Source of the DNA: Clostridia bacterium
Lineage (GTDB): Bacteria; Bacillota; Clostridia; UMGS1810
Reading direction: 5' to 3'
Assembly (NCBI GenBank): GCA_045605285.1
Contig: JAZUPR010000019.1
Coordinates: 1-35,878, forward strand
Length of the DNA stretch: 35,878 nt
Of this stretch, positions 6,744 to 28,694 are shown one piece after another. Under the pieces are notes generated by a model, which ran no database searches, was not told the origin of the DNA, and saw only the letters and a program-made list of their open reading frames with translations. Made by a program: the position numbers and the translations under genes. How positions within the stretch are numbered: the stretch's first letter is position 1; each line of letters opens with the position of its first letter.

Positions 6744-9700
6744 TTAATTATCATCGCCAAACAAGTCGGCGTCATCTATACTGCTGTCGATATCGTCAAC
6801 GTCTTCAAATGCGTCGATATCTTCTGTGTCCAATATATCCGGCTCTATGACATCATCAAGTGACATAGAAATTTCATCTGATGCATCATCTGAATCCATA
6901 TCGAAGTCAAAATCAGAAAGGATATTTCCAAAGAGGTCTTTTGCCTTATCCTCTTCTTCCTGTTCTTTCTTTTTATCTTCATCGTCAAGATTCATCATTT
7001 CGTAATCATCAAATTTTACCATTCTTACATCTGATTCGTCTTCGTCCAGATCTTCTTTAATTGCAATTTCATTATCATAATCATCAAGAACCTTAACATC
7101 GAGTCCAAGACTCTGAAGCTCTTTGATTAGTACCTTGAATGACTCAGGAACACCTGATTTAGGAACATTCTCACCCTTAACGATGCTTTCGTAGGTCTTG
7201 ACACGGCCAACGATATCGTCAGACTTAACAGTAAGAATTTCCTGGGGAGTATATGCAGCACCATAAGCCTCGAGTGCCCAAACCTCCATCTCTCCGAATC
7301 TCTGTCCACCAAACTGAGCTTTACCGCCGAGAGGCTGCTGAGTTACGAGTGAGTAAGGACCTGTTGAACGAGCGTGAATCTTATCGTCAACAAGGTGATG
7401 AAGTTTAAGGTAGTACATATATCCAACAGTAACAGGTGAATCAAACGGCATACCTGTTCTACCGTCATAAAGCACAGTTTTACCATCTGGGGTATATCCC
7501 GCTTTGGTAAGAGCCTCGGTAATATCTTTTTCTGTAGCACCGTCAAATACAGGAGTTGCTATCTTCCAGCCGAGAGCTTTGGCAGCATATCCGAGGTGAA
7601 CCTCAAGAACCTGTCCAATGTTCATACGAGAAGGTACGCCCAATGGATTAAGCACAATCTGAAGTGGTGTACCGTCAGGAAGGAAAGGCATATCTTCTTC
7701 AGGAAGAATTCTGGAAATAACACCTTTGTTACCGTGACGACCAGCCATTTTATCTCCAACTGATACTTTTCTCTTCTGAGCTATATAGCATCTTACAAGC
7801 TGATTTACTCCAGGTGGGAGTTCATCGCCATTTTCTCTTGTAAATATTTTTACATCTACAACTATACCTGACTCACCGTGAGGTACTCTAAGTGATGTGT
7901 CTCTTACATCTCTTGCTTTTTCACCGAATATTGCACGGAGAAGTCTTTCTTCTGCGCTGAGTTCTGTTTCACCCTTTGGTGTAACTTTACCAACGAGGAT
8001 ATCTCCGCTTCTGACTTCGGCACCGATTCTTACGATACCTCTTTCATCAATATCTTTAAGTGCATCTTCACCGAGATTTGAAATATCTCTTGTGATTTCT
8101 TCTGCACCAAGTTTGGTGTCTCTTGCTTCACATTCATATTCTTCTATATGGATAGATGTGAATACATCTTCTTTAACAAGTCTTTCATTGATAAGGACAG
8201 CATCCTCGTAGTTATAACCTTCCCATGTCATAAAGCCAATGAGAATGTTTTTACCAAGAGCAAGTTCTCCGTTACAGGTTGAAGGACCGTCGGCGATAAT
8301 ATCGCCTTTTTTAATCTTTTCGCCGTTTTCTACAATCGGGCGCTGATTGATACAGGTGCTCTGGTTGGAACGGAGGAATTTTGTGAGCTTATATACTCTT
8401 TCCTGACCGTTTTTCTCAAGAACAGTAATTCTGTCTGCACCTACTTTTTTAACAACACCGTCTTCCTGTGCAATTACACACACGCCGGAGTCTTTTGCTG
8501 CACGATATTCCATGCCTGTGCCGACAATAGGTGATTCTGTCTTAAGGAGCGGCACTGCCTGACGCTGCATGTTAGAACCCATGAGTGCACGAACCGCGTC
8601 GTCATTTTCGAGGAATGGTATAAGAGCTGTAGCAACAGAAACAATCTGCTGAGGTGAAACGTCAACATAGTCAACCTGATTTGGCTCAACCTCAAGGAAC
8701 TCGTCTCTGTATCTTACGATAACTTTTTTATTTACAAACTGTCCGTTTTCATCAAGTTTTTCACTGGCAGGAGCAACTTTATAGTTGTCCTCTGTATCAG
8801 CTGTCATATATTCTATGATATCTGTGGTACAGCATTTTTCTTTATCAAACTTTCTGTATGCAGCTTCAATGAAACCATATTCATTTACTCTTGCATAGGT
8901 GGAAAGTGAGTTGATAAGACCGATGTTAGGACCTTCAGGAGTCTCTATAGGACACATTCTGCCATAGTGTGAATGGTGAACGTCTCGAACTTCAAATCCC
9001 GCTCTTTCTCTGGAAAGACCGCCAGGTCCGAGAGCTGAAAGTCTTCTTTTATGTGTAAGCTCTGCAAGTGGGTTGTTCTGGTCCATAAACTGTGAAAGCT
9101 GTGATGAACCAAAGAACTCTTTGATTGCAGAAACTACAGGTCTTGAATTGATAAGGAGCTGTGGGGTAACTGTTGCAGGGTCCTGAGTAGTCATTCTTTC
9201 TCTTACAACTCTTTCAAGTCTTGCAAGACCAATTCTGAACTGATTCTGCAAAAGCTCTCCTACGCAACGGAGTCTTCTGTTTCCGAGATGGTCGATATCA
9301 TCTGTAGAACCGATACCGTATTCAAGATTGCAGTGATAGTTAATGGATGAAAGAATATCGTCTATGATAATGTGTTTTGGAACGAGTTCATCCATTCTAT
9401 GCATGAGCTGTTCTTTAATTTCAGCTTCATCCTCTGTGGAATCAAGGATTTCACGAAGAACGCTGTATTTAACCTTTTCGGTTATTTCAAGTTCGGAAAT
9501 ATCAAAGGATATAAAGTTCTTGATGTCTACCATGTCATTGGTAAAGAGTTTTATCTCCTTATTTCCTTCAACCTTAAGCCATACTGTGTTTATACCAGCA
9601 TTTTCCATAGCAAGAGCCTGGTCTGAAGATACAACATCGCCTGCTTTTCCGAGAACTTCACCTGTCTCAGGGTCTACAACATCTTTAGCGAGAACCTGAT

Positions 9701-12574: not shown

Positions 12575-13678
12575 TTATTCTATTACTTCTTGTGATGTTT
12601 CTTCCTCTCCAGTCACAGGTTCTCCAGCTATTTCATCTTCTATATCAGAAAAATCTATGCCAAAGAATACTTTCAAAGAGTCAAACACTTCGGGGTTAAG
12701 CTGGCTTATTTTTGATGCAAAAAGGCTTCTGCCACTCTGGTCAAAAGCACTGTACAAGGTAAGAGCATCAGCTATATCACTTGAATAATTAGTATAAACC
12801 GCATCTGTTGTTATTTCGTATTCTGCCTTATCGTCGATTATTTCTCCAAGAACATCTATCACTATTGTGATAATCGCTTGGTGTGGCTCTGTAAATGTAG
12901 ATTTTTTTGATATCAAAACATTTCTTGCAGTAGTAAGCTTTTCTACTATAGTTGCATTTATATTTGTGTAATCAACTGTTTCCTGCGAGCCAGAACCTGA
13001 ACCGGAGCCAGAACCTGAGCCGGAGCCAGAACCTGAGCCACCGCCTATCGAACCACCGGGAACAATAATTGTAGGAGTTTCAACTACAAATCCCGTAAGA
13101 GACATTGCAAGTTCTCCCCTTTTCATATTTTCTGTAGCTCTGAATTTATTCCCGGCTTCTGTCTTCATAAGACCATTTCCAAGAACTTTTTTTACATAAG
13201 CCTCTGCCCATGGAGATATCTTATCAGAAATCACGCCCATATACGGAATATCATACAGATTTGCAACTCTGCAGATTATTGCACACACCTGTTCTCTGGT
13301 AACATATTCATCACCCTTGAATGTACCATCAGGAAATCCGTTTATATATCCCGCTTTTTTACCTATAAGAACGTGCTCATAGTACCATTTATCTTTTGTA
13401 ACATCTGTAAATCCTGTAGTGTCTGCCTCAGTATACTTCCATATACTGTTTATCATTTTACAAAGCTGTGCTCTTGTAAGATTGCCATTTGGCGAGAATG
13501 TTCCATCTCCCATACCGTTTATAATTCCACTGTTTGCGAGTTTATAAATTGCAGTGCCCATATCGGAAGATGCGTCTACATCTTTAAATGTTATTTTATT
13601 GTCAGCATATACTCCGACTGCAGGAATTGATGTAATCATTGCTATTGTTATAAGGATTGATAGAAATTTTTTGAACAT
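12575..13678 (-). CDS. secreted SLH-domain surface protein, 367 aa, with a (GS)n linker
   Basis: Signal peptide MFKKFLSILITIAMITSIPAVGVYA. SLH repeats (FKDVDASS...GDGTFSPNGNLTRAQLCKMI; FTDVTKDKWYYEHV...PDGTFKGDEYVTREQVCAII; a third degenerate copy). GGSIGGGSGSGSGSGSGSGSGSGS linker, then a C-terminal domain of unknown function. Confidence 0.85.
   Translation of the reverse strand: MFKKFLSILITIAMITSIPAVGVYADNKITFKDVDASSDMGTAIYKLANSGIINGMGDGTFSPNGNLTRAQLCKMINSIWKYTEADTTGFTDVTKDKWYYEHVLIGKKAGYINGFPDGTFKGDEYVTREQVCAIICRVANLYDIPYMGVISDKISPWAEAYVKKVLGNGLMKTEAGNKFRATENMKRGELAMSLTGFVVETPTIIVPGGSIGGGSGSGSGSGSGSGSGSGSQETVDYTNINATIVEKLTTARNVLISKKSTFTEPHQAIITIVIDVLGEIIDDKAEYEITTDAVYTNYSSDIADALTLYSAFDQSGRSLFASKISQLNPEVFDSLKVFFGIDFSDIEDEIAGEPVTGEEETSQEVIE
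12988..13041. repeat. 3 x 18-nt tandem repeat encoding the Gly-Ser linker
   Basis: gagccagaacctgaaccg / gagccagaacctgagccg / gagccagaacctgagcca, head to tail. Confidence 0.9.
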
Positions 13679-13751: not shown

Positions 13752-16700
13752 TTAATAGAAGTTTCTCTCGAGGGTTGCAGTATAGTCTACTATTGATTTT
13801 GAATATTTATCAATAATATATTTACCAACTGATGTATCAATCACATCTTTTGATGATGGAGTGAGTTTAGAGCCAATGATGTTTACAACTGTGTCTGCAT
13901 TAAAGATGTTTTCTTCTTCCCTGCCAAATATAATGTCTTCAAATTTTTCAAGGCTTACGCTTATGTCAATTGAATCTATATCCATATCAGCAATTGATGA
14001 AATAATATCTTTGAATTCATCCTCATACTGTGAATAAATTTCATTTATAACAGAAATTTTTGAGAAAATTGCATCAAGTGGTCTTCCTGCAATTGTTCCG
14101 TCAGTATCAAGCTCTGAAATGATGGAAGCAAGTTTTGATATGGAATTATTGATAAGTGTCTCAAATGAAGCATTTGCACTGTCATAATCGCCTGTGTTCA
14201 TTGCATCTATTACAGAGTTTAATCTGTCGCAAAGAGCCTGAAGGTCATCGAATGTATATCCGTTTGGAAGGTTACCCTCTCCAAGGTCTGTGAGAATCTG
14301 TTTTACATTGTCAACTACAGATTTGATAGTGTCTTCATAACCACCTACAGGTGTGCCACCGAGTGAATCTACAACGGTTTTAAGAGAGTCTACCCTTGCA
14401 ATAAGGTCACTGAGAGTATATGAACCAACTATAGGTCTTCCGTTCTCTACATTGTCTGAAAGCTCTTCAAGTTTTTTAATAAATTTCACAAAATCCTTTG
14501 TAAGACTCTTTTTAACAAGAATAAGTTCTTCTTCTGTACAGTTTTGTGTATTATAGAAGCAAAGTGCCTGGTCATAGAGGATAAATGCATCAAGCATTGA
14601 TGTGTAATACTGCATAAAGTCTTTGAAATAATAACCTGTTGCGCCTGTTGTATCATTTATTCTCTGTGAGTCATAGCCTAAAAAAACATTGAACCAATCA
14701 GTTTCTTCTACCAGTTTTTTGAGTGATGTATTCTCGTTATATTTGTAGATGTTATTATTTTTAATTGTATTTGCAAATTTTCCTGAATAGTTTATGTATA
14801 TACCGTGAAGAATGAGTGGTGCATTGATTGTTACAGTAAGGCTGGTTGTATACTCACGCTCAACATTATCTCCCTTAACCGCATCTATAACAGGTCTAAG
14901 GCCATTCCAGTAATCTGCCTTGGCAGCCATGAACATATCTTCTACGATATCTTCTCCAAGGAAATCTATGATATTTCCATAGCCCTTGTCTCTGAGGATT
15001 GTAAGAATTTCATCAAAATCAAATCCGTTAATTGCCTCTCCGACTGCTGATACAAAGTGAATATTGTCCATGTTAACCTTAAAGGATTCTTCCTTATTCT
15101 TAAAGGAATTCATAAAGTTTACAAAAGGTGCATAATTGTCCAGGAAGCTTACGATAGTCTGTGCAAATTGCGGTCTTTCAGTATCGGGGTCCATAGCCAT
15201 TATATGATTTACTATCATATCTACAGTAGCATAGTCCACAACGAGAGCGTCTACCTTTTCATCCGACAATCCTCCAAGATAATCCATAATGAAATTATCA
15301 TCAACAGCATCTAAAATATTTTCATATTTATCGGCAACAAAGCTATCTACAAAATTAGCATTTGCCGGAGTCTGAATAAAGTTGGCTACAGGTGTTATGA
15401 TGTCGTTAACTGCGGCTTCTTTTATTTTTGCGATAAATGGGGTCTTGATGTCTCCCACAAGTGCAATTATATCCGGATTGGTTGCAAGAGTTCCTACTCC
15501 GTTGAAATAGTTTTCTATGAATCTGATGATATTATTTTCAATAAGAGTTTTGATATTTGCATCAATGGTTGTATCTCTGTTTAAATAATCTTTTACAAAA
15601 TCAACAAGTGCATCATTAACATCGTTCTCAGGTAAAGAATTCCAGCCCTGTGAGGTCAATATATCATTAAATGAAGCATCTGACCTGATTATTGCTATAA
15701 TTTCATTTCTTACGCTCGGTTTATCAAGGTTTGAAATAAAAGCATCATTTGCAGCTGTATGTTCTTTTGTGACAACTTCAAGAATCTGTGCTCTGAAACT
15801 GTTGATACCTAAGAGTTCAATAATAAAGGCATTATTGCTTGCAGCAGTGTCAACAAGTGCATCCTTTGCACTTGAAGAAAGAACCTTTTCTATAATATCC
15901 ACTGATTCCTGAAGTGTGCTTGGTACATTAATGTCACCTTTAATTTTATCCTGTATATAGGTTATTCCGTCCAACTTATAGTCATTGCTCTTTAGCTCTG
16001 AACGAATGGCTGGTATACCTACAGACTCTATAAGTGTTCTGCCATCGATATTATCTACAATAGTAGCCATATCAATAAGGCTTACTACAGAGCGAAGTTC
16101 TTCCTCGGAGCCATTGAGCATTGCCTGGATTTTGGTATTTACCTCAGCATTTATCTGGTCATAGTCTATAACGTCAACAATCTTAAGACCATAGTCTTTA
16201 TCCAGAATATTACCCTGGGAATCTACCATTCCTGTTTTTGCGTTTGCTTTATTAAAAGCCGCCTGAATCTTGGAATTAATTTCATTTTTAACATCGGTTT
16301 GACTGAGTGTAAGTCCTGCACTTATCATACCGTCTTTAAGTGTGTCAAAAAATCTTGACTGTGAATCATAGCTGATTTCAAGAACAGGATTTATACCAAA
16401 CACCTGCTTATCAACCTCTGCCACAATATGTTTCTGTCCATAGTAGACATCAATATTTCCGTTAACAGGAGTACTGTTTGTAAACACATCCCAGATACCG
16501 TTTGATTTTTTATAGATAAATTCTTTTCCTACTGTATGTGTATATGTAGCTCCGAGGCCTGTGTATGAAATATCGCTTCTGTCATAAGTCTGGCCTGTTG
16601 TGTCAAGCTTACCTGCATAAATTGTGTCAAGGTTTTTTCCGACATAACTGAGAGTTCGGTTTTCGGCAGGAATTGACTGATTTATATTAACTGTATCAAA

Positions 16701-17747
16701 AACACTTGCAGTGGCACCATTGTGGAATGAAACTGTGTAATAGGTTTCTACACCGCCGCTGTTGCCGCCACCGCTGCTTCCTCCACCGCCAACTGATGCT
16801 TCTTTGAAGGTTGCAGGAGTGTTTAGTATAATATTGTCAAATACATCTTCTGAACGTAAGTTCTCAAAATGAACAGTTCCATTTACGTCATTGATAACAA
16901 CGCCACCGTAAACCTTGGAGGAAATAATTTTAATTCCACCCTCACCGCCTCGGCAAAGGAGTCTGCCTTTAATGATGACATTGTCAAGAATAACTGTGCC
17001 GTTTCCTACTCCATCACCGATGATAAGATCACCCTCAATGGTAATATTTTTAAGAGTTACTCCCGATGTTCTTATAAGTATATTTCCAAATCCAATGGAG
17101 GTTACCTCACCCGGAACAAGGCAATAAACTTTTATAAGATTATATATAAGCTGAGCAAATTCTTCTCTTGTTATATAGTTTTGAGGTTTAAGGTTGCCCT
17201 TGTCATCTCCATTCAAATAGCCATTAATAACAAGCGCAGATGATGCACTCTTTGCCCAATCAGATACAAGATTTCCATCATTAAATTTTAAAAGCGATGA
17301 ATAATCCTCGCTAGAGAGAACAAGTGCTCTCCCTATTGCTACAAAAACCTGTTCTCTGGTTATGTAAGAATCCGGATTCATAGTTGATGCAGAATCACCC
17401 TGGAAGGTTCGCATATTAACTGCCTTTGCAATTTCATCGTAATACCAGTCGCTTTTAGATACATCAGTAAGATGAGATATATCCGCCTTTACAGTTGCAC
17501 CAAAGGCTCTGTTGACAATGGCTGCCATCTCGGCTCTGGTAAGGTTATCCTTAGGATTTATAGTTGAGCTTGTGCGTCCATTTAAAATTCCATTTGCCAC
17601 AGCATGAGTCATAGCATCCTTTGACCAACCCGCGGGGAAGTCTGTAAAGTCTGATACCTGAGCTGCTAACACTGGTGTCACAAGTGTGAAAATCATAGCA
17701 ATCATAGTGATAAAAGCTATGATTTTGCTGTTTGTTCTAAAATACAT
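13752..17747 (-). CDS. large secreted SLH-domain cell-surface protein, 1331 aa
   Basis: Signal peptide (IAFITMIAMIFTLVTPVLAAQV) and three SLH repeats (DFPAGWSKDAM..., LTDVSKSDWYYDEI..., DGNLVSDWAKSA...). Next is a beta-helix-like segment (NITIEGDLIIGDGVGNGTVILDNVIIKGRLL...) and a GGGGSSGGGNSGG linker. The remaining roughly 1000 aa have no motif I recognise. Confidence 0.85.
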   Translation of the reverse strand: MYFRTNSKIIAFITMIAMIFTLVTPVLAAQVSDFTDFPAGWSKDAMTHAVANGILNGRTSSTINPKDNLTRAEMAAIVNRAFGATVKADISHLTDVSKSDWYYDEIAKAVNMRTFQGDSASTMNPDSYITREQVFVAIGRALVLSSEDYSSLLKFNDGNLVSDWAKSASSALVINGYLNGDDKGNLKPQNYITREEFAQLIYNLIKVYCLVPGEVTSIGFGNILIRTSGVTLKNITIEGDLIIGDGVGNGTVILDNVIIKGRLLCRGGEGGIKIISSKVYGGVVINDVNGTVHFENLRSEDVFDNIILNTPATFKEASVGGGGSSGGGNSGGVETYYTVSFHNGATASVFDTVNINQSIPAENRTLSYVGKNLDTIYAGKLDTTGQTYDRSDISYTGLGATYTHTVGKEFIYKKSNGIWDVFTNSTPVNGNIDVYYGQKHIVAEVDKQVFGINPVLEISYDSQSRFFDTLKDGMISAGLTLSQTDVKNEINSKIQAAFNKANAKTGMVDSQGNILDKDYGLKIVDVIDYDQINAEVNTKIQAMLNGSEEELRSVVSLIDMATIVDNIDGRTLIESVGIPAIRSELKSNDYKLDGITYIQDKIKGDINVPSTLQESVDIIEKVLSSSAKDALVDTAASNNAFIIELLGINSFRAQILEVVTKEHTAANDAFISNLDKPSVRNEIIAIIRSDASFNDILTSQGWNSLPENDVNDALVDFVKDYLNRDTTIDANIKTLIENNIIRFIENYFNGVGTLATNPDIIALVGDIKTPFIAKIKEAAVNDIITPVANFIQTPANANFVDSFVADKYENILDAVDDNFIMDYLGGLSDEKVDALVVDYATVDMIVNHIMAMDPDTERPQFAQTIVSFLDNYAPFVNFMNSFKNKEESFKVNMDNIHFVSAVGEAINGFDFDEILTILRDKGYGNIIDFLGEDIVEDMFMAAKADYWNGLRPVIDAVKGDNVEREYTTSLTVTINAPLILHGIYINYSGKFANTIKNNNIYKYNENTSLKKLVEETDWFNVFLGYDSQRINDTTGATGYYFKDFMQYYTSMLDAFILYDQALCFYNTQNCTEEELILVKKSLTKDFVKFIKKLEELSDNVENGRPIVGSYTLSDLIARVDSLKTVVDSLGGTPVGGYEDTIKSVVDNVKQILTDLGEGNLPNGYTFDDLQALCDRLNSVIDAMNTGDYDSANASFETLINNSISKLASIISELDTDGTIAGRPLDAIFSKISVINEIYSQYEDEFKDIISSIADMDIDSIDISVSLEKFEDIIFGREEENIFNADTVVNIIGSKLTPSSKDVIDTSVGKYIIDKYSKSIVDYTATLERNFY

Positions 17748-18450: not shown

Positions 18451-20094
18451 CTATTTAACAGCTACAATTTTGTTGACACCTGCGTTTTCGGGGCCGTAGA
18501 ACACACCGTCAAGCTTACCGCCTGTTTCAATATCAACAAAAATTGTCATTCCGCTTTTAACAGTAATATCCTCTACATTTTCTGCAATTGTAAAAAGCTT
18601 TGATAGCTTTGTATTCTCAGGTACAGATTTTATATCCAATTTTACTCTGTATGTATACCCGTCTCCGTTATTTATAACAAGGCTTGGATAAAAGTTGATA
18701 TCCACTTTATAACCTGCCAAATTCATTTCCTTTGCAATAATAGACAACATATTGGTATAGATAAGGGAGTACTGTCTTGCATTATAATAAGCATTTTTGG
18801 CAATTCCAATTCTTTCGCCCTTATCATATGTTATAAATTCCGTATTATATATATCATTCGGAATATCATTCAATATAAGTGCGTAATCCTGGTGATTTTT
18901 CGGATATGAGTTAATATTGGTGCGGAGTTTCTCGCTCCTTTTATAAGTCTTATCTGAGAAAACAGTCTTTTTTGAAAATCCACAGATTGAATCAGCCTGA
19001 ATAATAAGGTTGGTAATCTGTTTTAATGTGGCTTTTTCACCGGCCTTTATCTTACCATCTTTATACGGGAATATGCCATTTTTCTTGGCAAAGGAGAGCA
19101 CTTTGTTACGGGTTTCGCTACCTGCATTGGTTATGTCAGCATAGTAATTATCCTTATCTCCAAAACCAAGATTTATATCTGCAGTTTTAGCCAATGCAAA
19201 GGATACTGCACAAACAGCATCTTCCATAGTTGCGGTTGCATCAATGTAGGTTTCGTTAACCTTATCTTCACCTATGCAGTATTTTCCATATACATTGAGA
19301 GAACGTACATATTTATGCTGGAACGGGTCTTCGCTATAAGAAAAATTTGAATACTTTGGATCATGCTCGTTGCATATAAGCCTCATTGCCATATGTGCAA
19401 GTTCACCATTTGTTACGGTTGCATCAGACTTATATTCTTTATCATCGAAAAGATTAAAGCTATCATACACAGCTTTATATACCTCATCGCTGATATTATC
19501 TATAAAATCTTTCCCTGAAACAGATGCATTTTCTCTGGCTCTTACAATAAGAGCAGCGGCCTCTGCTCTGGTGAGAGAACTGTCGAGACGAAGGTTTATG
19601 TAGTCGTCACCCATCATAATTTCACGACTATATATCCATGCAATAGCATCTGAATTTTTTCCCTGTCTTGTAATGACAGAAGGAACTGATTCTGAAACAA
19701 CTGGCGAACCATTTCTTTTCCAAAGAAGATTTGCCACATCGCCACGGGTAATGGCCTCATTTGGCTTAAATGCAAATTCAGTTACAGGCTCAAGTCCCGA
19801 TGACATTACATAGTCATAAAACCAATCGCTTTTTTCTACATCGACATACTCTGATTGAGTGACAGTGTTGCCTTTGCCAATCATTTTTACAAATTCAGCT
19901 CTTGAAACAGTTGAATTCGGCTTGAATGTACCGTCTGTAAAACCATTTATTGTGCCCTCTCCCACAAGCTTGTTTACAGCATTATACGCCCAATGACCGG
20001 ATGATAAATCCTTGAAGGATGCGGCAGACACAGTAATAGCCGACGGAATCAGCATTGCTATCACAAGAAAAACTGCCAAAATTCTTTTTTTCAT
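18451..20094 (-). CDS. secreted SLH-domain surface protein, 547 aa
   Basis: Signal peptide (KKRILAVFLVIAMLIPSAITVSAA). SLH repeats (FKDLSSGHWAYNAVNKLV...TDGTFKPNSTVSRAEFVKMI; YVDVEKSDWFYDYV...; a third around NSDAIAWIYSREIM...SSLTRAEAAALIV). The C-terminal roughly 350 aa are unassigned. Start moves to ATG 20094 with AAAGGAG 9 nt upstream. The track start at 20100 is a TTG. Confidence 0.85.
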   Translation of the reverse strand: MKKRILAVFLVIAMLIPSAITVSAASFKDLSSGHWAYNAVNKLVGEGTINGFTDGTFKPNSTVSRAEFVKMIGKGNTVTQSEYVDVEKSDWFYDYVMSSGLEPVTEFAFKPNEAITRGDVANLLWKRNGSPVVSESVPSVITRQGKNSDAIAWIYSREIMMGDDYINLRLDSSLTRAEAAALIVRARENASVSGKDFIDNISDEVYKAVYDSFNLFDDKEYKSDATVTNGELAHMAMRLICNEHDPKYSNFSYSEDPFQHKYVRSLNVYGKYCIGEDKVNETYIDATATMEDAVCAVSFALAKTADINLGFGDKDNYYADITNAGSETRNKVLSFAKKNGIFPYKDGKIKAGEKATLKQITNLIIQADSICGFSKKTVFSDKTYKRSEKLRTNINSYPKNHQDYALILNDIPNDIYNTEFITYDKGERIGIAKNAYYNARQYSLIYTNMLSIIAKEMNLAGYKVDINFYPSLVINNGDGYTYRVKLDIKSVPENTKLSKLFTIAENVEDITVKSGMTIFVDIETGGKLDGVFYGPENAGVNKIVAVK

Positions 20095-20115
20095 AATCAA
20101 AATCTCCTTTAAAAG

Positions 20116-21001: not shown

Positions 21002-21030
21002 AGTATAACAGAATTTTAATGTATTTTCAA
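21002..21030 (-). promoter_or_regulatory. candidate sigma-A promoter for the HprK-like/SLH transcription unit
   Basis: Minus strand: TTGAAA, 17 nt, TATACT, located just after the peptide-gene terminator. Confidence 0.5.
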
Positions 21031-21060: not shown

Positions 21061-21094
21061 GCAACAAAAAGGCAGTGTCAACACGACACTGCCT
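21061..21094 (-). terminator. rho-independent terminator after the 60-aa peptide gene
   Basis: AGGCAGTGTC-AACAC-GACACTGCCT (perfect 10-bp stem, 5-nt loop), followed on the minus strand by TTTTGTTGC. Confidence 0.8.
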
Positions 21095-21126
21095 TAATAT
21101 ATTTACGAAAAATAATTTAATTCAAA

Positions 21127-22310: not shown

Positions 22311-22339
22311 ATTCTATCAAAAATCAAATTGAATGTCAA
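22311..22339 (-). promoter_or_regulatory. candidate sigma-A promoter for the secreted-protein/peptide unit
   Basis: Minus strand: TTGACA, 17 nt, TAGAAT. Confidence 0.55.
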
Positions 22340-22434: not shown

Positions 22435-24066
22435 TTATTCACAAACACATCCATCTTTTATATGTAAAATCCTGTCACATATATCACGAGTATTTTGTCT
22501 GTGTGTAATTATAATGCAGGTTTTATCGTTCATATTCTTAATTTTGGAAACAACTTCCTTTTCTGTGTCTTCATCAAGGGCTGAGGTGGCCTCATCGAGA
22601 AGAATTACAGGGCGTGACGAGTAAAAAGCTCTTGCCAGGGCAAGTCTTTGAATCTGGCCCTCGGAAAGACCGAGTCCTCCTTCTCCCAGAAGGGTGTCAA
22701 ATCCATCGGGTAGTGTCATTATATAATCATATATACACGCATCCTCAGAGGCTTTTTTCAATCTTTCACAGTCAATATCACAACAGGAAAACGCTATGTT
22801 TTCTTTTATGGTTCCGGAAAATATCATATTCCCCTGTGGCACATATGCAAACAGCTCCTTTGATGGCGGATAAGCACAATTTTCGTTTTCGCTCTCAGCA
22901 TACACCTTCCCCTTGTCGGGCTTTATAACACCCATAAGCAAAAGCATCATCGTGCTCTTTCCCGCTCCGGAGCTACCCACAACAGCAACAGTATCACCTT
23001 TGTTTATCACGAGGTCTGCATCTTTAAGAATATATTCTTCATTATATGAAAAATCAACATCCTTAAATACTAATGAAGAAAAGCTTCTATTTATATATGT
23101 AGTTTTTTCTTCTATATTTTCAAGCTCCATGATTCTCTCGGCAGATGCTGACATAGAATAATACCCCGATATTAAGGACGAAAATTCCTTAAAGGGAATC
23201 TGAAGCTGGTCTACAAGCTGAAGAACAGCCATAAGTGTTCCTACGGTCATTATACCGATAGAAATTTTATAAGAACACCAGATAAGAGCCAGATAATAAC
23301 CAAAGGTCATAATAACAAAAAACAAAAGATTTGCAAGAATGGTTATTATACCTCTTTTTACACTTACCTTGTAATTATCCGTTTGATATTTTTTTAGCTT
23401 TGATACTGAGAATGCCTCTTTTACAAAAGTCTTTATGGCAAGGATATTTTGTATGCTCTCTTGCATATACGATTTTACCACACCGGAGGTATGCTGACAT
23501 TTTTTATGCAGGGGTTTTATCTTTTTTCCGTACAGTCTGGTGGCAATTGATACCATCGGAAAAACAATTATGCACACAACTGCAAGGTCTTTATCTATAA
23601 TAAAGAGTGCTCCAAGGCTGAATAAAAACTGAGTGGCAGTTGTAAAAAACTGAGGAACAATTGACATAATGCCATCAGAAACCACAGACACATCGCTTGT
23701 AAGTCTGTTTACAAGTTCACCGGAGTGCACATCTGACACCTTTTGGTAATCACCGTTTAAAACAGCAGAAAAGGAGCTAAGCTGAATATTGTGAAAGAGT
23801 CTTACAGATACCCTCACTTCAACCACCGTGTAGACAATGTGAATGAGAATCTGGCCAAGCATTAAGAGTGCAAGAGTAATTACAGGCTGTGACAGGGACA
23901 TATCGAGAGTGCCGGTTGCCACATCAATAACGGTTTTTGATGCAAAAGCAAACCTTACTGACAGATAAGACATTGCCATCCCCAAAAAAGAAAGGAAAAT
24001 AATTTTGCACAATTCTTTTTTTGATTTCTGAAAAATCCATGAAAAAGCAGTTTTATCTTTTGCCAC
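22435..24066 (-). CDS. ABC exporter half-transporter (N-terminal 6-TM domain fused to an NBD), 543 aa
   Basis: Walker A GSSGAGKST, signature LSEGQIQRLALARA, Walker B ILLDEATSALD, H-loop ITHR. Hydrophobic N-terminal half with no C39 peptidase domain. GTG start with AAGGAGG 7 nt upstream, overlapping the peptidase gene by 14 nt. Confidence 0.9.
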   Translation of the reverse strand: MAKDKTAFSWIFQKSKKELCKIIFLSFLGMAMSYLSVRFAFASKTVIDVATGTLDMSLSQPVITLALLMLGQILIHIVYTVVEVRVSVRLFHNIQLSSFSAVLNGDYQKVSDVHSGELVNRLTSDVSVVSDGIMSIVPQFFTTATQFLFSLGALFIIDKDLAVVCIIVFPMVSIATRLYGKKIKPLHKKCQHTSGVVKSYMQESIQNILAIKTFVKEAFSVSKLKKYQTDNYKVSVKRGIITILANLLFFVIMTFGYYLALIWCSYKISIGIMTVGTLMAVLQLVDQLQIPFKEFSSLISGYYSMSASAERIMELENIEEKTTYINRSFSSLVFKDVDFSYNEEYILKDADLVINKGDTVAVVGSSGAGKSTMMLLLMGVIKPDKGKVYAESENENCAYPPSKELFAYVPQGNMIFSGTIKENIAFSCCDIDCERLKKASEDACIYDYIMTLPDGFDTLLGEGGLGLSEGQIQRLALARAFYSSRPVILLDEATSALDEDTEKEVVSKIKNMNDKTCIIITHRQNTRDICDRILHIKDGCVCE

Positions 24067-24523
24067 AGAACAACCTCCTTATTCTTATGAGAACCTCAAG
24101 GATAATGCGTCTTAGAGGGAAAACAAATACCCACACACGAGAATACAGCTTATAAACGGGATTGCCCGGGTCTATTTCAATCCCTTTTCTTGTAAAGCCT
24201 ACGACCTTTGCTATTATCTGAGATTTTTCCACTCCATATTCTTTTTCTGTTTCATTATCACCCGCAATTATATATGTTCCGTTTTTTATGCCGATTACAC
24301 GATGCAAAATATAATCTCCGTCTTTTCGACGATGAAGTACCACGTCATATTTCTTTATATGGTCTGCATTCCCTACGGTTACCTGGTCTCTTCTGTTGGA
24401 GAGAAACGGGAACATACTTATCCCTGTGACGGTAAACCTCACCTTGCCGCCGGAATTTACCTTCTCTTCAATCACAGGTGCAATATCACCAATACTGAAC
24501 TCAATCTTTTCTACATCAACCAT
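24053..24523 (-). CDS. S24/S26-family serine peptidase, S26B (SipW/ER-type Ser-His)-like, 156 aa
   Basis: GISMFPFL (nucleophile Ser box), YILHRVIGI (His in the position of the S26A Lys box) and IIAGDNE (GDN box). There is no N-terminal hydrophobic anchor. The ATG immediately follows the TAA of the PqqD-like gene (GAATAAATGG). Confidence 0.65.
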   Translation of the reverse strand: MVDVEKIEFSIGDIAPVIEEKVNSGGKVRFTVTGISMFPFLSNRRDQVTVGNADHIKKYDVVLHRRKDGDYILHRVIGIKNGTYIIAGDNETEKEYGVEKSQIIAKVVGFTRKGIEIDPGNPVYKLYSRVWVFVFPLRRIILEVLIRIRRLFCGKR

Positions 24524-24787
24524 TTATTCAATTACCTTTTTTTCTTTAAGTATATTTACAAATTCGCAAACATCGTTATACGCCACATCTTTGCTAACTT
24601 CAAACTCAGAGCACATTTTATCAACTACAAAATCTATGTCTGAGTCTTCCATAAGGAGATTCCATATAAAAGCTCCTGTTTCATTGATTGTAATCATAGC
24701 TGAAAAATCAAGAAGATTTTCTCCTGACGGAACTATAACGTATGTATCGGCAACATTTCTTAATTCAAAGCCTTTTGAAATTTTCAT
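24524..24787 (-). CDS. PqqD-family protein (RiPP recognition element-type), 87 aa
   Basis: MKISKGFELRNVADTYVIVPSGENLLDFSAMITINETGAFIWNLL...FVVDKMCSEFEVSKDVAYNDVCEFVNILKEKKVIE. Size and pattern (beta strands, then LNETGAFIW, then a helical tail) are typical of PqqD/RRE. Start set at ATG 24787 (GGAAAGGA upstream). The track's extension to 24892 would run through the predicted promoter and into a terminator. Confidence 0.7.
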   Translation of the reverse strand: MKISKGFELRNVADTYVIVPSGENLLDFSAMITINETGAFIWNLLMEDSDIDFVVDKMCSEFEVSKDVAYNDVCEFVNILKEKKVIE

Positions 24788-24830: not shown

Positions 24831-24859
24831 ATTTTATCATAGGAAGATAAGGTTGTCAA
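24831..24859 (-). promoter_or_regulatory. candidate sigma-A promoter for the PqqD-peptidase-ABC operon
   Basis: Minus strand: TTGACA, 17 nt, TAAAAT. Confidence 0.6.
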
Positions 24860-24995: not shown

Positions 24996-25430
24996 TTAAA
25001 GATATGCTTTAAGGTCTCTTCGAAGACTCTCTTCAATATCAATAAGTCTTCTGGTGGCTTGAATCACATCTCTGTCTGCAGCCGGATATTTATTAAGATA
25101 TTTATGAAGAGACTTTATTCCCATATCGCATCCGTCGGTCATAAGGTCTGCAACAACTTTATCCGTCTCTTTTGCAGCAAGTTTTACATTAATTTTCATC
25201 CAGGACATTCCCTTTGCCATAGGATTTGGCTCTCCCTCAGGAGCATCAAACTTAGACAAAAGCCTATGCAAATCCTTATCAAGCTCTGTATGTCCCTCTT
25301 TTGAGTGATGCAAAATCTCGCGAAGGTCGTCACTATCTACCCTGTCAATAACCTCGTCTATGGAACTGATGCCCATCTTTACCCCTGAATCACATTCTCT
25401 CAAAAGTTCTATAGTATCGTTTTTTTCCAT
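24996..25430 (-). CDS. hypothetical all-helical cytoplasmic protein, 144 aa
   Basis: Clean ORF with an AAAGGGTGGG RBS and its own terminator. Charged, helix-prone sequence with no catalytic motif recognised. Confidence 0.6.
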   Translation of the reverse strand: MEKNDTIELLRECDSGVKMGISSIDEVIDRVDSDDLREILHHSKEGHTELDKDLHRLLSKFDAPEGEPNPMAKGMSWMKINVKLAAKETDKVVADLMTDGCDMGIKSLHKYLNKYPAADRDVIQATRRLIDIEESLRRDLKAYL

Positions 25431-26075: not shown

Positions 26076-27779
26076 TTATCTGGAAAGAGTCAGCTCCTCT
26101 TCTTTTTCAAGTTCCCCATAAGCAATCTTTCCAACTTTCGTGGTAGGAAGCGACTCTCTGAACTCTATGTCGTAAGGCATAGCATATTTTGCAATATGCT
26201 TTCTGCAATGCTCCATAAGCTCTGACCTAAGTTCCTCTCCTGCCTCATAGTCTTTGTTAAGCACAACAAAGGCTTTTACTTTCTGAACTTTATGAGGGTC
26301 GGGAACACCAATTACACAGCTTAAAAGAACTGCATCGTGGTCGTTTATAATCTTTTCAAGTTGTGACGGATACACATTATATCCGCTGGTAACAATCATT
26401 CTCTTTATTCTCTGTTTAAAATAGACAAAGCCTTCTTCATCCATACTGCCAAGGTCTCCTGTGCGGAGCCAGAGGCGTTCATCAGGATGGGTTTCGAGAA
26501 CATTTTCTGTTTCTTCGGGGCGATTAAGGTAGCCTTTCATAACAGTAGGTCCGCTAATGCAGATTTCTCCCAATTGGCCATACTCTACCTCTTCGTTTGT
26601 TCCAAGAGCACATACTTTATAATATGTATCGGGGAATGGAATGCCAATGCTTCCTTCCTTTTCGTTAAAATACGGAGTAAGACAGCTGGCTGTAACACAC
26701 TCAGTAGTTCCATAACCCTCTCTTACATGAATTGCGGCTCCGTGCCTTTCAAGAAAAGCATCTATCTTTTTCTTTAAATCGGGAGCAAGAGAATCTCCGC
26801 CGGAGAATACGCCCTTTAAAAAGCTTAAATCCACTCCTTCAAGATACGGATTGGAAACTATTGCATCAAAAAGCGTGGGCACTCCTGCAATAAGATTTGG
26901 TTTTTGTTTTTTAATAAGATTTGCATAATCCTTAACATTAAATCGCGGTACAAGAATTGACCTTCCGCCCGCATAGAGCATAGTATGTATACAAACTCCG
27001 AGTCCAAATCCGTGGAAAGCAGGCATTGCAGCAAGCATACTCATATTTGCCACATCACAGTTACTCATTGAAATGGTCTGATATGCAAGAGCATTGAAAT
27101 TAAGGTTTGAAAGCTCTATACCCTTGGATGTACCTGTTGTGCCGCCTGAAAAGAGAATAACCGCAGTAGCATCTTTATCGGAAAAATTTTTATATTCACT
27201 CTCAAAAGCATCTCCTGCGCAAAGAAAATCTTTCCATTTAATAATGCTTGAATCATTTACTTTTTCAATTTTTCTGCCTGATGTGAGTCTGTATCCGACA
27301 GCTTTTACTGCGGAAAGCTCATCATCTATGCCTGAAACTATGATTTTCTGGAGACCACATTCGTCTTTTACATTCAAAACCTTCTTAGCAAACAAATCAA
27401 GAGTGACTAAGAATTTACTGCCTGTTTCATTTACAAAATGAACAATTTCTCCTTCTGCTGACAACGGGTGTATCATACTTGCTATAGCACCAATCATATT
27501 GAGAGCATAAAGACAATATACAGTCTGCGGAACATTTGGCATACAAACGGTCACATAATCACCTTTTTTTATGCCAACTGCTGCAAAAGATTTTGCAACT
27601 CTATGAATATTCTTTGACAAAAGTTCATAACTGATATTTCTTCCCATAAAAGAGAGTGCTGTTTTCTGAGGATTTTTTGATGCAACATCAATTATCTGCT
27701 GACTGATTGTCCACTCAGGATATTCAAGGTGTGATGGGACATCTCCGTAAGCGGGAGTCCATGGTGCTTTAATTTCCAT
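26076..27779 (-). CDS. AMP-forming acyl-CoA/acyl-AMP ligase (ANL superfamily), 567 aa
   Basis: AMP-binding core motifs FSGGTTGTSKG, EGYGTTE, TGDLG and the C-terminal K (TTKVGKI). Confidence 0.9.
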   Translation of the reverse strand: MEIKAPWTPAYGDVPSHLEYPEWTISQQIIDVASKNPQKTALSFMGRNISYELLSKNIHRVAKSFAAVGIKKGDYVTVCMPNVPQTVYCLYALNMIGAIASMIHPLSAEGEIVHFVNETGSKFLVTLDLFAKKVLNVKDECGLQKIIVSGIDDELSAVKAVGYRLTSGRKIEKVNDSSIIKWKDFLCAGDAFESEYKNFSDKDATAVILFSGGTTGTSKGIELSNLNFNALAYQTISMSNCDVANMSMLAAMPAFHGFGLGVCIHTMLYAGGRSILVPRFNVKDYANLIKKQKPNLIAGVPTLFDAIVSNPYLEGVDLSFLKGVFSGGDSLAPDLKKKIDAFLERHGAAIHVREGYGTTECVTASCLTPYFNEKEGSIGIPFPDTYYKVCALGTNEEVEYGQLGEICISGPTVMKGYLNRPEETENVLETHPDERLWLRTGDLGSMDEEGFVYFKQRIKRMIVTSGYNVYPSQLEKIINDHDAVLLSCVIGVPDPHKVQKVKAFVVLNKDYEAGEELRSELMEHCRKHIAKYAMPYDIEFRESLPTTKVGKIAYGELEKEEELTLSR

Positions 27780-27791
27780 ATCATAAATCTC

Positions 27792-28679
27792 CTATAATTC
27801 AACAGGTGCATCCACAGGCTCGTCGAGAATTTGTGGATTTGACAATATTTTCCTTAGTATCTTCATGGTATTTGAAAAATAATAACCGTCTGCAATTCTT
27901 TCATCAATAGTGAAAGCAAGGTCGAGGGCTTTTTTCATTTCGTAGGTTCCGTCTTCTTTGAAAAACGGTTTATACATCAACTCGCCAATGACAAGAAAAA
28001 TGGAGTTTGTTCCCCAGTTTGCCAGATGGTGATAATTTGCACTGAGCTTTATGCTGCCAAGGTTTGACACGAACACCGAAGTAGAATACGGATCAAGCGG
28101 TCTTAAAACCTTGGGAAGTCTTCCGTGCTCATTTAAATATGTAAGATATTTTGTAAGATATTTTAAAACAACGGGAGGAATTTTTGTAAGAATATTCATC
28201 ATGTCCGTTGTGTCGTCAACCATTTCTTCATTTCTTATTTTATATATATTTCCACATATAAAATCGTGAACCTGTGTAAGAGGTGAAACACCGCTCTCTC
28301 TATCAAGTTTAAATATAAGGAGTGACTCTCCGGCATTATCGCTGAATTTATTCTTTGCCGTAAAGGAGAATGAAATATCTTTTCTTTCATACATTCTTCC
28401 TGCAGCAAGGAACTGATTCATCTTTGGCCTTAAGTATACTGTCTTTGCCATAGCTGCCATTATAACGTGAAAAACAGTATATTTATACTGAGGATTTTCA
28501 CTATTCTTTTTTTCTACATATTCAAGAACAGGTGTCATATCAACAGTTTCATTCATAATGGCTTCATTATCTGTTCTGTTGGGAAGAAGATGCGCCATAA
28601 GGATATGCATTGAATCGACATCTTCTAGATAATATGCATCGTATCTGTCTCTGCGGTGTTTTTTTCTGTTGTTATCCAT
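27792..28679 (-). CDS. stand-alone 2-oxoacid-dehydrogenase-E2/CAT-fold acyltransferase-like protein, 295 aa
   Basis: The C-terminal LAFTIDERIADGYYFSNTM aligns with the E2 catalytic motif DHRxxDG but has Glu in place of His. No lipoyl or subunit-binding domains. Start set at ATG 28679 (GGAGGA upstream). Confidence 0.6.
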   Translation of the reverse strand: MDNNRKKHRRDRYDAYYLEDVDSMHILMAHLLPNRTDNEAIMNETVDMTPVLEYVEKKNSENPQYKYTVFHVIMAAMAKTVYLRPKMNQFLAAGRMYERKDISFSFTAKNKFSDNAGESLLIFKLDRESGVSPLTQVHDFICGNIYKIRNEEMVDDTTDMMNILTKIPPVVLKYLTKYLTYLNEHGRLPKVLRPLDPYSTSVFVSNLGSIKLSANYHHLANWGTNSIFLVIGELMYKPFFKEDGTYEMKKALDLAFTIDERIADGYYFSNTMKILRKILSNPQILDEPVDAPVEL

Positions 28680-28694
28680 TTTATCCTCCAAATA

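Follow-up and report, generated by a model that had tools for sequence, protein, structure and literature searches.

The window analysed here is a 35,878-nt stretch of DNA from a Clostridia bacterium (UMGS1810), contig JAZUPR010000019.1 of assembly GCA_045605285.1. It contains a conserved module of seven genes, every one on the minus strand, in the order RiPP recognition element (RRE; RiPP, a peptide made on the ribosome and modified after translation), peptidase, ATP-binding cassette (ABC) exporter, secreted protein, 60-aa precursor peptide, HprK/ScmC-like protein and SLH protein (Table 1). We describe here the second gene, which encodes an S24/S26-fold peptidase lacking an N-terminal membrane anchor, and its pairing with the RRE. 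The pair is probably the core of a RiPP-like peptide locus, in which the peptidase would remove the leader of the precursor in the cytoplasm.

Sequence and fold of the peptidase

The peptidase has three characteristic boxes, GISMFP (residues 34-39), LHRVIGI (residues 73-79) and GDN (residues 88-90). A database search returned 131 homologues of 118 to 167 aa, and the few named ones are called 'S24' or 'S24/S26 family peptidase'. As judged from 41 homologues with 33-83% identity, the family never varies at G34, S36, M37, P39, D60, H74, R75, G88, D89 and W131. A second set of 40 sequences, which includes another subfamily, shows no change at the positions equivalent to S36, H74, D89, N90 and E95. 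Ser36, His74, Asp89 and Glu95 are the putative catalytic residues. When the family profile was aligned with human SEC11A/C, S36 and H74 stood opposite the Ser of the SM pair and the His of HRVI, and E95 opposite the second Asp of the Sec11 sequence GDNNEVDD. H74 also stood opposite the catalytic-Lys position (VKRIIG) of a Bacillus signal peptidase I (SPase I). An earlier reading of this DNA from its letters (the original prediction) had pointed out the three boxes; they are present with their key residues invariant, and the catalytic Ser and His do align with those of S26 enzymes.

An AlphaFold2 model of the peptidase alone, as the original prediction had proposed to make, shows a signal-peptidase/LexA fold (pLDDT 88, predicted TM-score (pTM) 0.80). 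From N- to C-terminus it has a helix, a beta core and a helical hairpin. The top Foldseek matches of the model were SpsB, SipA and the C-terminal domains of LexA, UmuD and lambda repressor, with a probability of 1.0 for SpsB, SipA and LexA.

Membrane segments were judged by Kyte-Doolittle hydropathy and hydrophobic-moment calculations. The N-terminal 33 residues of the model form a single helix, and within residues 1-40 the Kyte-Doolittle mean over 15 residues peaks at 0.92. On the same scale, no N-terminal hydrophobic segment of transmembrane grade is present in any of the 41 family members, so the anchor that had been reported missing from the window protein is missing from the family. The C-terminus (residues 122-153) is an amphipathic helical hairpin with conserved W131 and R138, the Arg being invariant. 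In the window peptidase this segment has a 19-residue Kyte-Doolittle maximum of 1.70, which is borderline for a membrane span. In distant members and in the natural fusions described below it is clearly a basic amphipathic helix, with values of 0.4-1.4 in the distant members. The segment had been described as weakly amphipathic; it is real, conserved and amphipathic, but in the window protein it is stronger than 'weak'.

No Pfam family matched the peptidase at E<=0.1. Its NCBIfam matches were archaeal-type signal peptidase I (TIGR02228 sigpep_I_arch; E=1e-7, 31.7 bits against a cut-off of 51.85), SodX (TIGR02754; E=1e-4, 22.6 bits against 63.25) and SipW (NF046067; E=2e-3, 17.5 bits against 190). 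The peptidase shares with S26B enzymes the S24/S26 beta-barrel fold, the Ser of GxSMxP, a His base in the HR box and acidic residues after GDN, where Sec11 has its third catalytic residue. It has neither an N-terminal transmembrane anchor nor a score above a curated cut-off, and for these two reasons it does not qualify as a member of the signal peptidases. The fold and catalytic core are S26B-like, and the S26B assignment in the original prediction is valid for the catalytic core only, in which Ser and His align with Sec11, and does not extend to the curated families. A LexA-like autoprotease or regulator (S24) was ruled out by the His at the general-base position and by the lack of a DNA-binding or helix-turn-helix domain in the protein. 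SodX, the maturation protease of nickel superoxide dismutase (NiSOD), was ruled out by the score below its cut-off and by the absence of sodN among the window genes.

Coupling of the peptidase to the recognition element

The protein encoded directly upstream is a discrete RRE of 87 aa, whose start at ATG 24787 is consistent with the starts of its homologues. Its top NCBIfam match is lasso_PqqD_Bac (NF033536), with 34.3 bits against a cut-off of 80, and it scores 31.4 bits against a cut-off of 70 with NF033530. The top sequence match in the PDB is the lasso B1 protein TbiB1 (E=1.4e-4). The nearest solved relatives of the RRE are lasso B1 proteins, TbiB1 and TfuB1. As in lasso systems, a discrete PqqD-type RRE here adjoins a protease gene, but its score remains below the lasso_PqqD cut-off.

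The stop codon TAA of the RRE gene (24524-24526) abuts the ATG of the peptidase gene (24521-24523), contiguous and in frame, and the peptidase gene in turn has 14 nt in common with the ABC gene. A perfect AGGAGG sequence backs the GTG at 24066 with which the ABC gene begins. Both junctions are thus as the original prediction had given them. We scanned one genome per species with an alignment of closer relatives and obtained 28 loci, all from uncultured Clostridia or Oscillospiraceae metagenome-assembled genomes of gut or rumen. Because this alignment was used, the 28 loci are biased to relatives of at least 41% identity. A PqqD gene lies directly upstream of the peptidase gene in 28/28 of them and in most metagenome loci of closer relatives, and an ABC gene follows the peptidase gene in 27/28. 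The order PqqD, peptidase, ABC is also found in five loci of our numbered set (L001-L004 and L039). From the PqqD stop to the peptidase start the distance is -8 to +6 nt in 31/31 loci, genome and metagenome loci taken together, and since the gap is kept throughout, the junction is more than chance. The full seven-gene order, with one or two small peptides, is kept across loci whose peptidases share 41-60% identity. The proposed survey of PqqD adjacency thus bears out the pairing among closer relatives, but not in L007 and L038, where the peptidase has no adjacent PqqD gene.

In a search of 1.84 billion representative proteins, 725 clusters (50% identity) fell into the peptidase family at E<=1e-30. 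Pfam analysis of the longer family matches revealed four PqqD-peptidase fusions, and a follow-up search added six further fusion clusters from independent sources, to 42% identity, giving at least 10 in total (NCBI, ENA, JGI and Logan). In the fusions the RRE is joined to the N-terminus of the peptidase domain with no intervening membrane segment. Because a cytoplasmic RRE is fused to it in this manner, the catalytic domain is placed in the cytoplasm, as had been proposed; this is the strongest argument for such a location. A model of one fusion, P0269 (pLDDT 91, pTM 0.78), has a C-terminal domain that matches SpsB and SipA. Its N-terminal domain is a canonical RRE of three strands and three helices, and the best structural matches of this domain are the leader-bound lasso B1 proteins TbiB1 and TfuB1.

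The peptidase domain is also found fused at its C-terminus, to an NTP_transf_5 nucleotidyltransferase in P0237 (564 aa) and to an S-adenosylmethionine (SAM) methyltransferase in P0168 (359 aa). Nucleotidyltransferases and methyltransferases serve as tailoring enzymes of RiPPs.

Distant homologues occur in clusters with radical SAM, ScmC and PqqD genes, in some cases with NTP_transf_5 (L006, 1-2850; L008, 4100-8770; L037, 2265-7492). The precursors encoded there have a leader of the same MKKxxxKP type and are Cys-rich or Cys-containing; they are thus candidates for RiPPs of the thioether type. The leader type shared with these radical-SAM clusters suggests that the RRE-peptidase unit is a portable leader-handling module.

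Some members of the family lie apart from such clusters. L007 has a lone peptidase gene (7314-7775) near ribosomal protein genes, with no precursor or exporter visible nearby, L005 has an RRE-peptidase pair by an enolase gene (7732-8438), and L040 has an RRE-peptidase fusion by groES/groEL (8001-8750).

The precursor and the other genes of the locus

The precursor gene is preceded by AGGAGG 11 nt upstream, and about 30 homologous small open reading frames (ORFs) at the same position in related loci form one family with it. The first 23 or so residues of the family are conserved (MKKYxKPxxxVVELSVKESLSAL). Y4, P7 and E18 are invariant in 24 precursors, so that the leader has a YxxP motif, as lasso leaders have, and over residues 1-21 any two precursors are on average 62% identical. 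The remainder, the core, is variable, free of Cys and rich in Thr, Ser, Ala, Lys and Asn, with one conserved Tyr near the C-terminus. By sequence, a conserved leader followed by a variable core has the bipartite pattern of a RiPP precursor. Tandem precursors with similar leaders and unlike cores are found in L014 (9293-9689) and L016 (11193-11589).

The leader is close to those of Firmicutes lasso peptides, such as MKKDWTIPTLEVLDINMTMA|G and MKAWNTPVIETLEINETAA|G (PMC7533575). The cores do not have the N-terminal ring-forming pattern Gly1...Asp/Glu8-9. All 24 precursors have Ser or Ala at position 21, and 16 of them have Ser, Ala or Cys at position 19. By analogy with lasso leaders and by the signal-peptidase rule of small residues at -1 and -3, cleavage is predicted, with moderate-to-low confidence, after E-S-L-S.

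Table 1. Genes and signals of the peptidase locus in the window.
Feature	Position	Strand	Evidence or remark
Discrete PqqD-type RRE, 87 aa	24524..24787	-	Pfam PqqD E=6e-17
Anchor-less S24/S26-fold peptidase, 156 aa	24053..24523	-	Family invariants, Sec11/SPase I alignment, AlphaFold2/Foldseek, hydropathy, natural RRE fusions
ABC exporter, fused membrane and ATPase domains, 543 aa	22435..24066	-	Pfam ABC_membrane and ABC_tran only
AGGAGG Shine-Dalgarno sequence of ABC gene	24074..24079	-	7 nt upstream of GTG start 24066, inside 3' end of peptidase gene
Secreted protein with Sec signal peptide, 311 aa	21369..22304	-	Likely true start ATG 22277 (MKNNLFK...)
Precursor peptide, 60 aa	21127..21309	-	Conserved leader MKKYIKPSAEIVELSIKESLS, then variable Ser/Thr/Lys-rich core with conserved Tyr
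HprK-related/ScmC-like P-loop protein, 284 aa	20116..20970	-	Walker A SADSGVGKST; weak NCBIfam matches HprK_rel_B and ScmC
SLH-domain cell-wall protein, 549 aa	18451..20100	-	Pfam SLH; last gene of module
Promoter-like site, TTGACA-17-TAAAAT with TG	24831..24859	-	Upstream of RRE gene; 11/12 consensus positions, consensus match only
Promoter-like site	22311..22339	-	Before secreted-protein gene; 11/12 consensus positions
Promoter-like site	21002-21030		Precedes ScmC-like gene
Intrinsic-terminator-like hairpin	21069..21095	-	12-bp GC-rich stem and T-run, directly 3' of precursor gene

No C39 peptidase domain was found in the ABC exporter with Pfam, and the locus therefore encodes no other protease. 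Proteins with a signal peptide (210-340 aa), homologous or analogous to the secreted protein of the window, are encoded between the ABC and precursor genes in most related loci. Sequence searches of the PDB with the 311-aa secreted protein and with the ScmC-like protein gave no significant match. The homologues of the latter carry the Pfam domain PF27840 ScmC, and its gene is present in 16 of the 28 genome loci as well as in the window. After it, in most loci, comes a gene for a signal-peptide protein of about 540 aa whose N-terminus is homologous to that of the window SLH protein; the SLH domain of this protein was confirmed by Pfam for L039. Three SLH-domain proteins are encoded downstream in the window (18451-20100, 13752-17747 and 12575-13678).

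A SynChlorMet (SCM) cassette consists of ScmC, the PqqD-related ScmD and the radical SAM proteins ScmE/ScmF. The locus was rejected as such a cassette, with 22.4 bits against a cut-off of 125 for ScmC, 15.8 against 100 for ScmD and no radical SAM gene in the window.

The three promoter-like sites suggest three transcription units, which would comprise RRE-peptidase-ABC, secreted protein-precursor and ScmC-like-SLH. The hairpin directly follows the precursor gene, and RiPP loci typically have a terminator after the precursor gene. The remaining genes of the window are chromosomal housekeeping genes of Clostridia type, including those for RpoB/C, SpoIVA, a penicillin-binding protein (PBP) and QueT, and genes for more SLH proteins. 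No lasso cyclase, transglutaminase-like protease or radical SAM gene is found among the window genes.

Upstream of the locus are an AMP-binding (acyl-CoA-ligase-like) gene and a gene like those for acyltransferases of the 2-oxoacid-dehydrogenase type (26076-27779 and 27792-28691). An AMP-binding gene also stands directly upstream of the RRE gene in L003 (6020-7708) and L004, which could reflect a functional link or no more than synteny. At 24996-25430, after the QueT terminator and before the RRE operon's promoter, lies a gene for a 144-aa protein that weakly matches DUF2383 (ferritin-like), and a homologue of this protein is encoded near the locus in L020 (6510-6944).

Interpretation and comparison with known systems

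The arrangement of the genes is confirmed, and the comparative and structural evidence supports its interpretation. Those refuting conditions of the original prediction that the analysis covered all came out in favour of that prediction. With a probability of about two thirds, we read the peptidase as an RRE-guided cytoplasmic leader peptidase that is coupled to export and forms the core of a RiPP-like peptide locus. In the scheme that we infer for the proteolysis, its dependence on the RRE, the cleavage site, the membrane-surface association, the ScmC-like modification and the role of the product, the 87-aa RRE would, in the cytoplasm, bind the 60-aa precursor by its conserved N-terminal leader (MKKYxKPxxxVVEL...). 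The RRE would then hand the precursor to the co-translated 156-aa protease, whose Ser36/His74 pair is probably completed by Glu95 and Asp89, and which would cut off the leader in the cytoplasm, most likely after E-S-L-S with its small residues at -1 and -3. The basic amphipathic C-terminal hairpin probably holds the protease against the membrane's inner face, next to the ABC exporter, which would then export the core peptide. A prior modification of the peptide, such as phosphorylation, may be the task of the HprK/ScmC-like P-loop protein. In lasso systems the leader peptidase requires the RRE and is activated by it (PMC10885120), and HPr-kinase homologues phosphorylate lasso precursors (summarised in PMC7533575).

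Several observations weigh against this scheme. The borderline hydropathy (1.70) of the C-terminus of the window peptidase would allow an integral tail anchor, and the pTM of 0.78 for the modelled fusion is only suggestive of a fixed arrangement of RRE and peptidase. Some members have no adjacent PqqD gene, namely the orphan of L007 and that of L038, which has a peptide, ScmC and the peptidase; the L005 pair and the L040 fusion stand alone, with no precursor or exporter seen nearby. The ScmC-like gene is absent in several loci (L001 and L003), and in view of such loci the precursor may not be modified at all. Position 19 (-3) is Asn or Pro in 8/24 precursors, which is atypical for type I signal peptidases.

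Three other explanations were weighed. The peptidase could be a dedicated signal peptidase acting outside the membrane on the neighbouring secreted and SLH proteins, as SipW does on TasA/TapA. The top NCBIfam matches, which are archaeal-type signal peptidase I and SipW, the conservation of a signal-peptide protein and an SLH protein in the locus, and the borderline hydrophobic C-terminal segment agree with such a role. We nevertheless regard it as highly improbable. The scores are far under the cut-offs (31.7 against 51.85 and 17.5 against 190), 0/41 members have an N-terminal anchor or signal peptide, and fusion to a cytoplasmic RRE leaves no membrane segment between the domains. Moreover, the pair is also found in loci without a nearby secreted protein (L005 and L040) and in radical-SAM peptide clusters (L006, L008 and L037), and the secreted proteins have ordinary AxA Sec sites that are fit for the housekeeping signal peptidase.

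The enzyme may instead be active in the pathway at another step, such as removal of a follower or a second trim, transpeptidation or cyclisation, or processing of another pathway protein. TraF of plasmid RP4, an S26-family pilin cyclase, would be a model for transpeptidation or cyclisation. The conserved C-proximal Tyr motif of the core with variable tails after it would suit such a step, as would the distant branches, in which ScmC is a more constant companion of the enzyme than PqqD (L038), and L006, which also encodes a C39-containing ABC exporter that could remove the leader. The window and the 28 closest loci, however, encode no other protease, and the ABC exporter is without C39. RRE fusion and tight coupling indicate a leader-directed activity, and Ser or Ala at position 21, the end of the conserved leader, fits the small -1 rule of S26 enzymes, so that a different step seems unlikely. 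Finally, orphans beside enolase (L005), groES/groEL (L040) and ribosomal protein genes (L007) are what one would expect if the RRE-peptidase pair were a general cytoplasmic unit for peptide processing or quality control, not dedicated to the 60-aa peptide, with clustering that is only partly functional. The conservation of the seven-gene order, precursor included, at 41-60% peptidase identity makes this quite improbable, as do leaders far more conserved than cores, a pattern expected for recognition by a dedicated RRE; the orphan pairs could act on precursors encoded elsewhere in the genome.

The reading as an RRE-guided leader peptidase can be extended to a wider one, which we put forward tentatively, as a whole well short of an even bet. 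The locus would belong to an unrecognised peptide pathway that is widespread in gut Clostridia, in which the leader and RRE are of lasso type but now serve a Ser-His-Glu protease of signal-peptidase fold. This pathway would yield a linear product, possibly phosphorylated by the HprK/ScmC-like protein, which would be part of a cell-surface or signalling system with the secreted and SLH proteins, and not a classical antibiotic RiPP. The RRE-peptidase unit would be a generic leader-removal module that serves radical-SAM peptides in other Clostridia.

No step in the making of ribosomal peptide natural products is less understood or more limiting than leader removal. If our reading is true, the RiPP toolbox gains a new enzyme family, an RRE-guided cytoplasmic protease of signal-peptidase fold, and the catalytic core of S26 enzymes can be put to a new use within the cell. 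The family is large (725 clusters at 50% identity) and occurs in uncultured gut and rumen Clostridia. The reading is directly testable because enzyme, partner and substrate are defined, with 156, 87 and 60 residues. The serine families named in a 2023 review of RiPP leader proteases are S8 and S9, and S24, S26 and signal peptidases are absent from it (PMC10885120). We found no description of an S24/S26-PqqD protease pairing in the literature searched, which is not proof of absence. The 'signal peptidase' of the Ruminococcin C paper is an M16 metallopeptidase. RRE-Finder reported about 4,000 lasso-like discrete RREs without lasso enzymes and flagged them as possible false positives (PMC7470986), and a 2025 RRE survey noted many PF05402 proteins with unannotated extra domains (PMC12710340). 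If true, our reading would give a function to part of both groups.

Among known systems with a related fold, the S24 autoproteases LexA and UmuD differ in having a Ser-Lys dyad and a region with an internal cleavage site; LexA also has a DNA-binding domain at its N-terminus. SodX (TIGR02754) is likewise a small S26-family enzyme that removes a short N-terminal extension of its substrate. SodX is a soluble enzyme without an anchor, and its substrate SodN is processed within the cell. Unlike the present peptidase, SodX has no RRE partner, and here no sodN lies nearby and the score is 22.6 bits against 63.25. SipA/LepA, a signal-peptidase homologue that Streptococcus pyogenes needs for pilus assembly, is among the top structural matches (4n31, TM-score about 0.5) and shows the fold in a specialised, non-housekeeping role. 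SipA is without catalytic residues and acts outside the cell, whereas the present family keeps Ser and His invariant.

Like the S26B enzymes SipW, archaeal SPase I and Sec11, the peptidase has the fold, the GxSMxP Ser box, the HR box with a His that replaces the bacterial Lys, and the GDN box with an acidic residue six positions on, aligned with the second Asp of Sec11 GDNNEVDD. Unlike them, it has no N-terminal anchor, and its catalytic domain is predicted to be cytoplasmic. It also has an extra N-terminal helix, the C-terminal amphipathic hairpin, an RRE partner or fusion and scores below the cut-offs. Its presumed substrate is a hydrophilic leader, in contrast to the hydrophobic Sec signal peptide of S26B enzymes. 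Functionally, the protease does not count as a signal peptidase. As in the peptidase-containing ABC transporters (PCATs; C39) of class II bacteriocins and lanthipeptides, leader removal would be tied to ABC export, here by the 14-nt gene overlap. PCATs use an N-terminal Cys (C39) domain where this locus has a separate Ser/His enzyme, and a double-glycine motif where recognition would here use the RRE and a YxxP leader.

The closest parallel is the split lasso B1/B2 pair (TbiB1/B2, TfuB1/FusE-FusB), in which a discrete PqqD-type RRE is likewise encoded immediately before the protease. Lasso systems share the YxxP leader, and they also have RRE-protease fusions beside the split forms (PMC7470986). 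As in the paeninodin-type lasso clusters of Firmicutes, the locus contains an ABC exporter and an HprK-like gene. The lasso B2 protein is a transglutaminase-like Cys protease (C96), whereas the present enzyme has a Ser/His signal-peptidase fold. No B2 protein is encoded in the window or the annotated related loci, where an S24/S26-fold protein takes its place, and no Asn-synthetase-like cyclase in the window or in L001-L008 and L037-L040. The cores are without the ring pattern, and the RRE reaches 34 bits against the lasso cut-off of 80. A true lasso cluster was accordingly ruled out, since there is no B2 and no cyclase and the RRE is below the model cut-off. The likeness to the B1/B2 pair that the original prediction had drawn nevertheless holds and goes further than that prediction could tell, in the B1 proteins as closest solved RRE relatives, the lasso_PqqD_Bac match and the YxxP leader without B2 or cyclase. 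The RRE and leader of this system are probably related to those of the lasso B1/B2 system.

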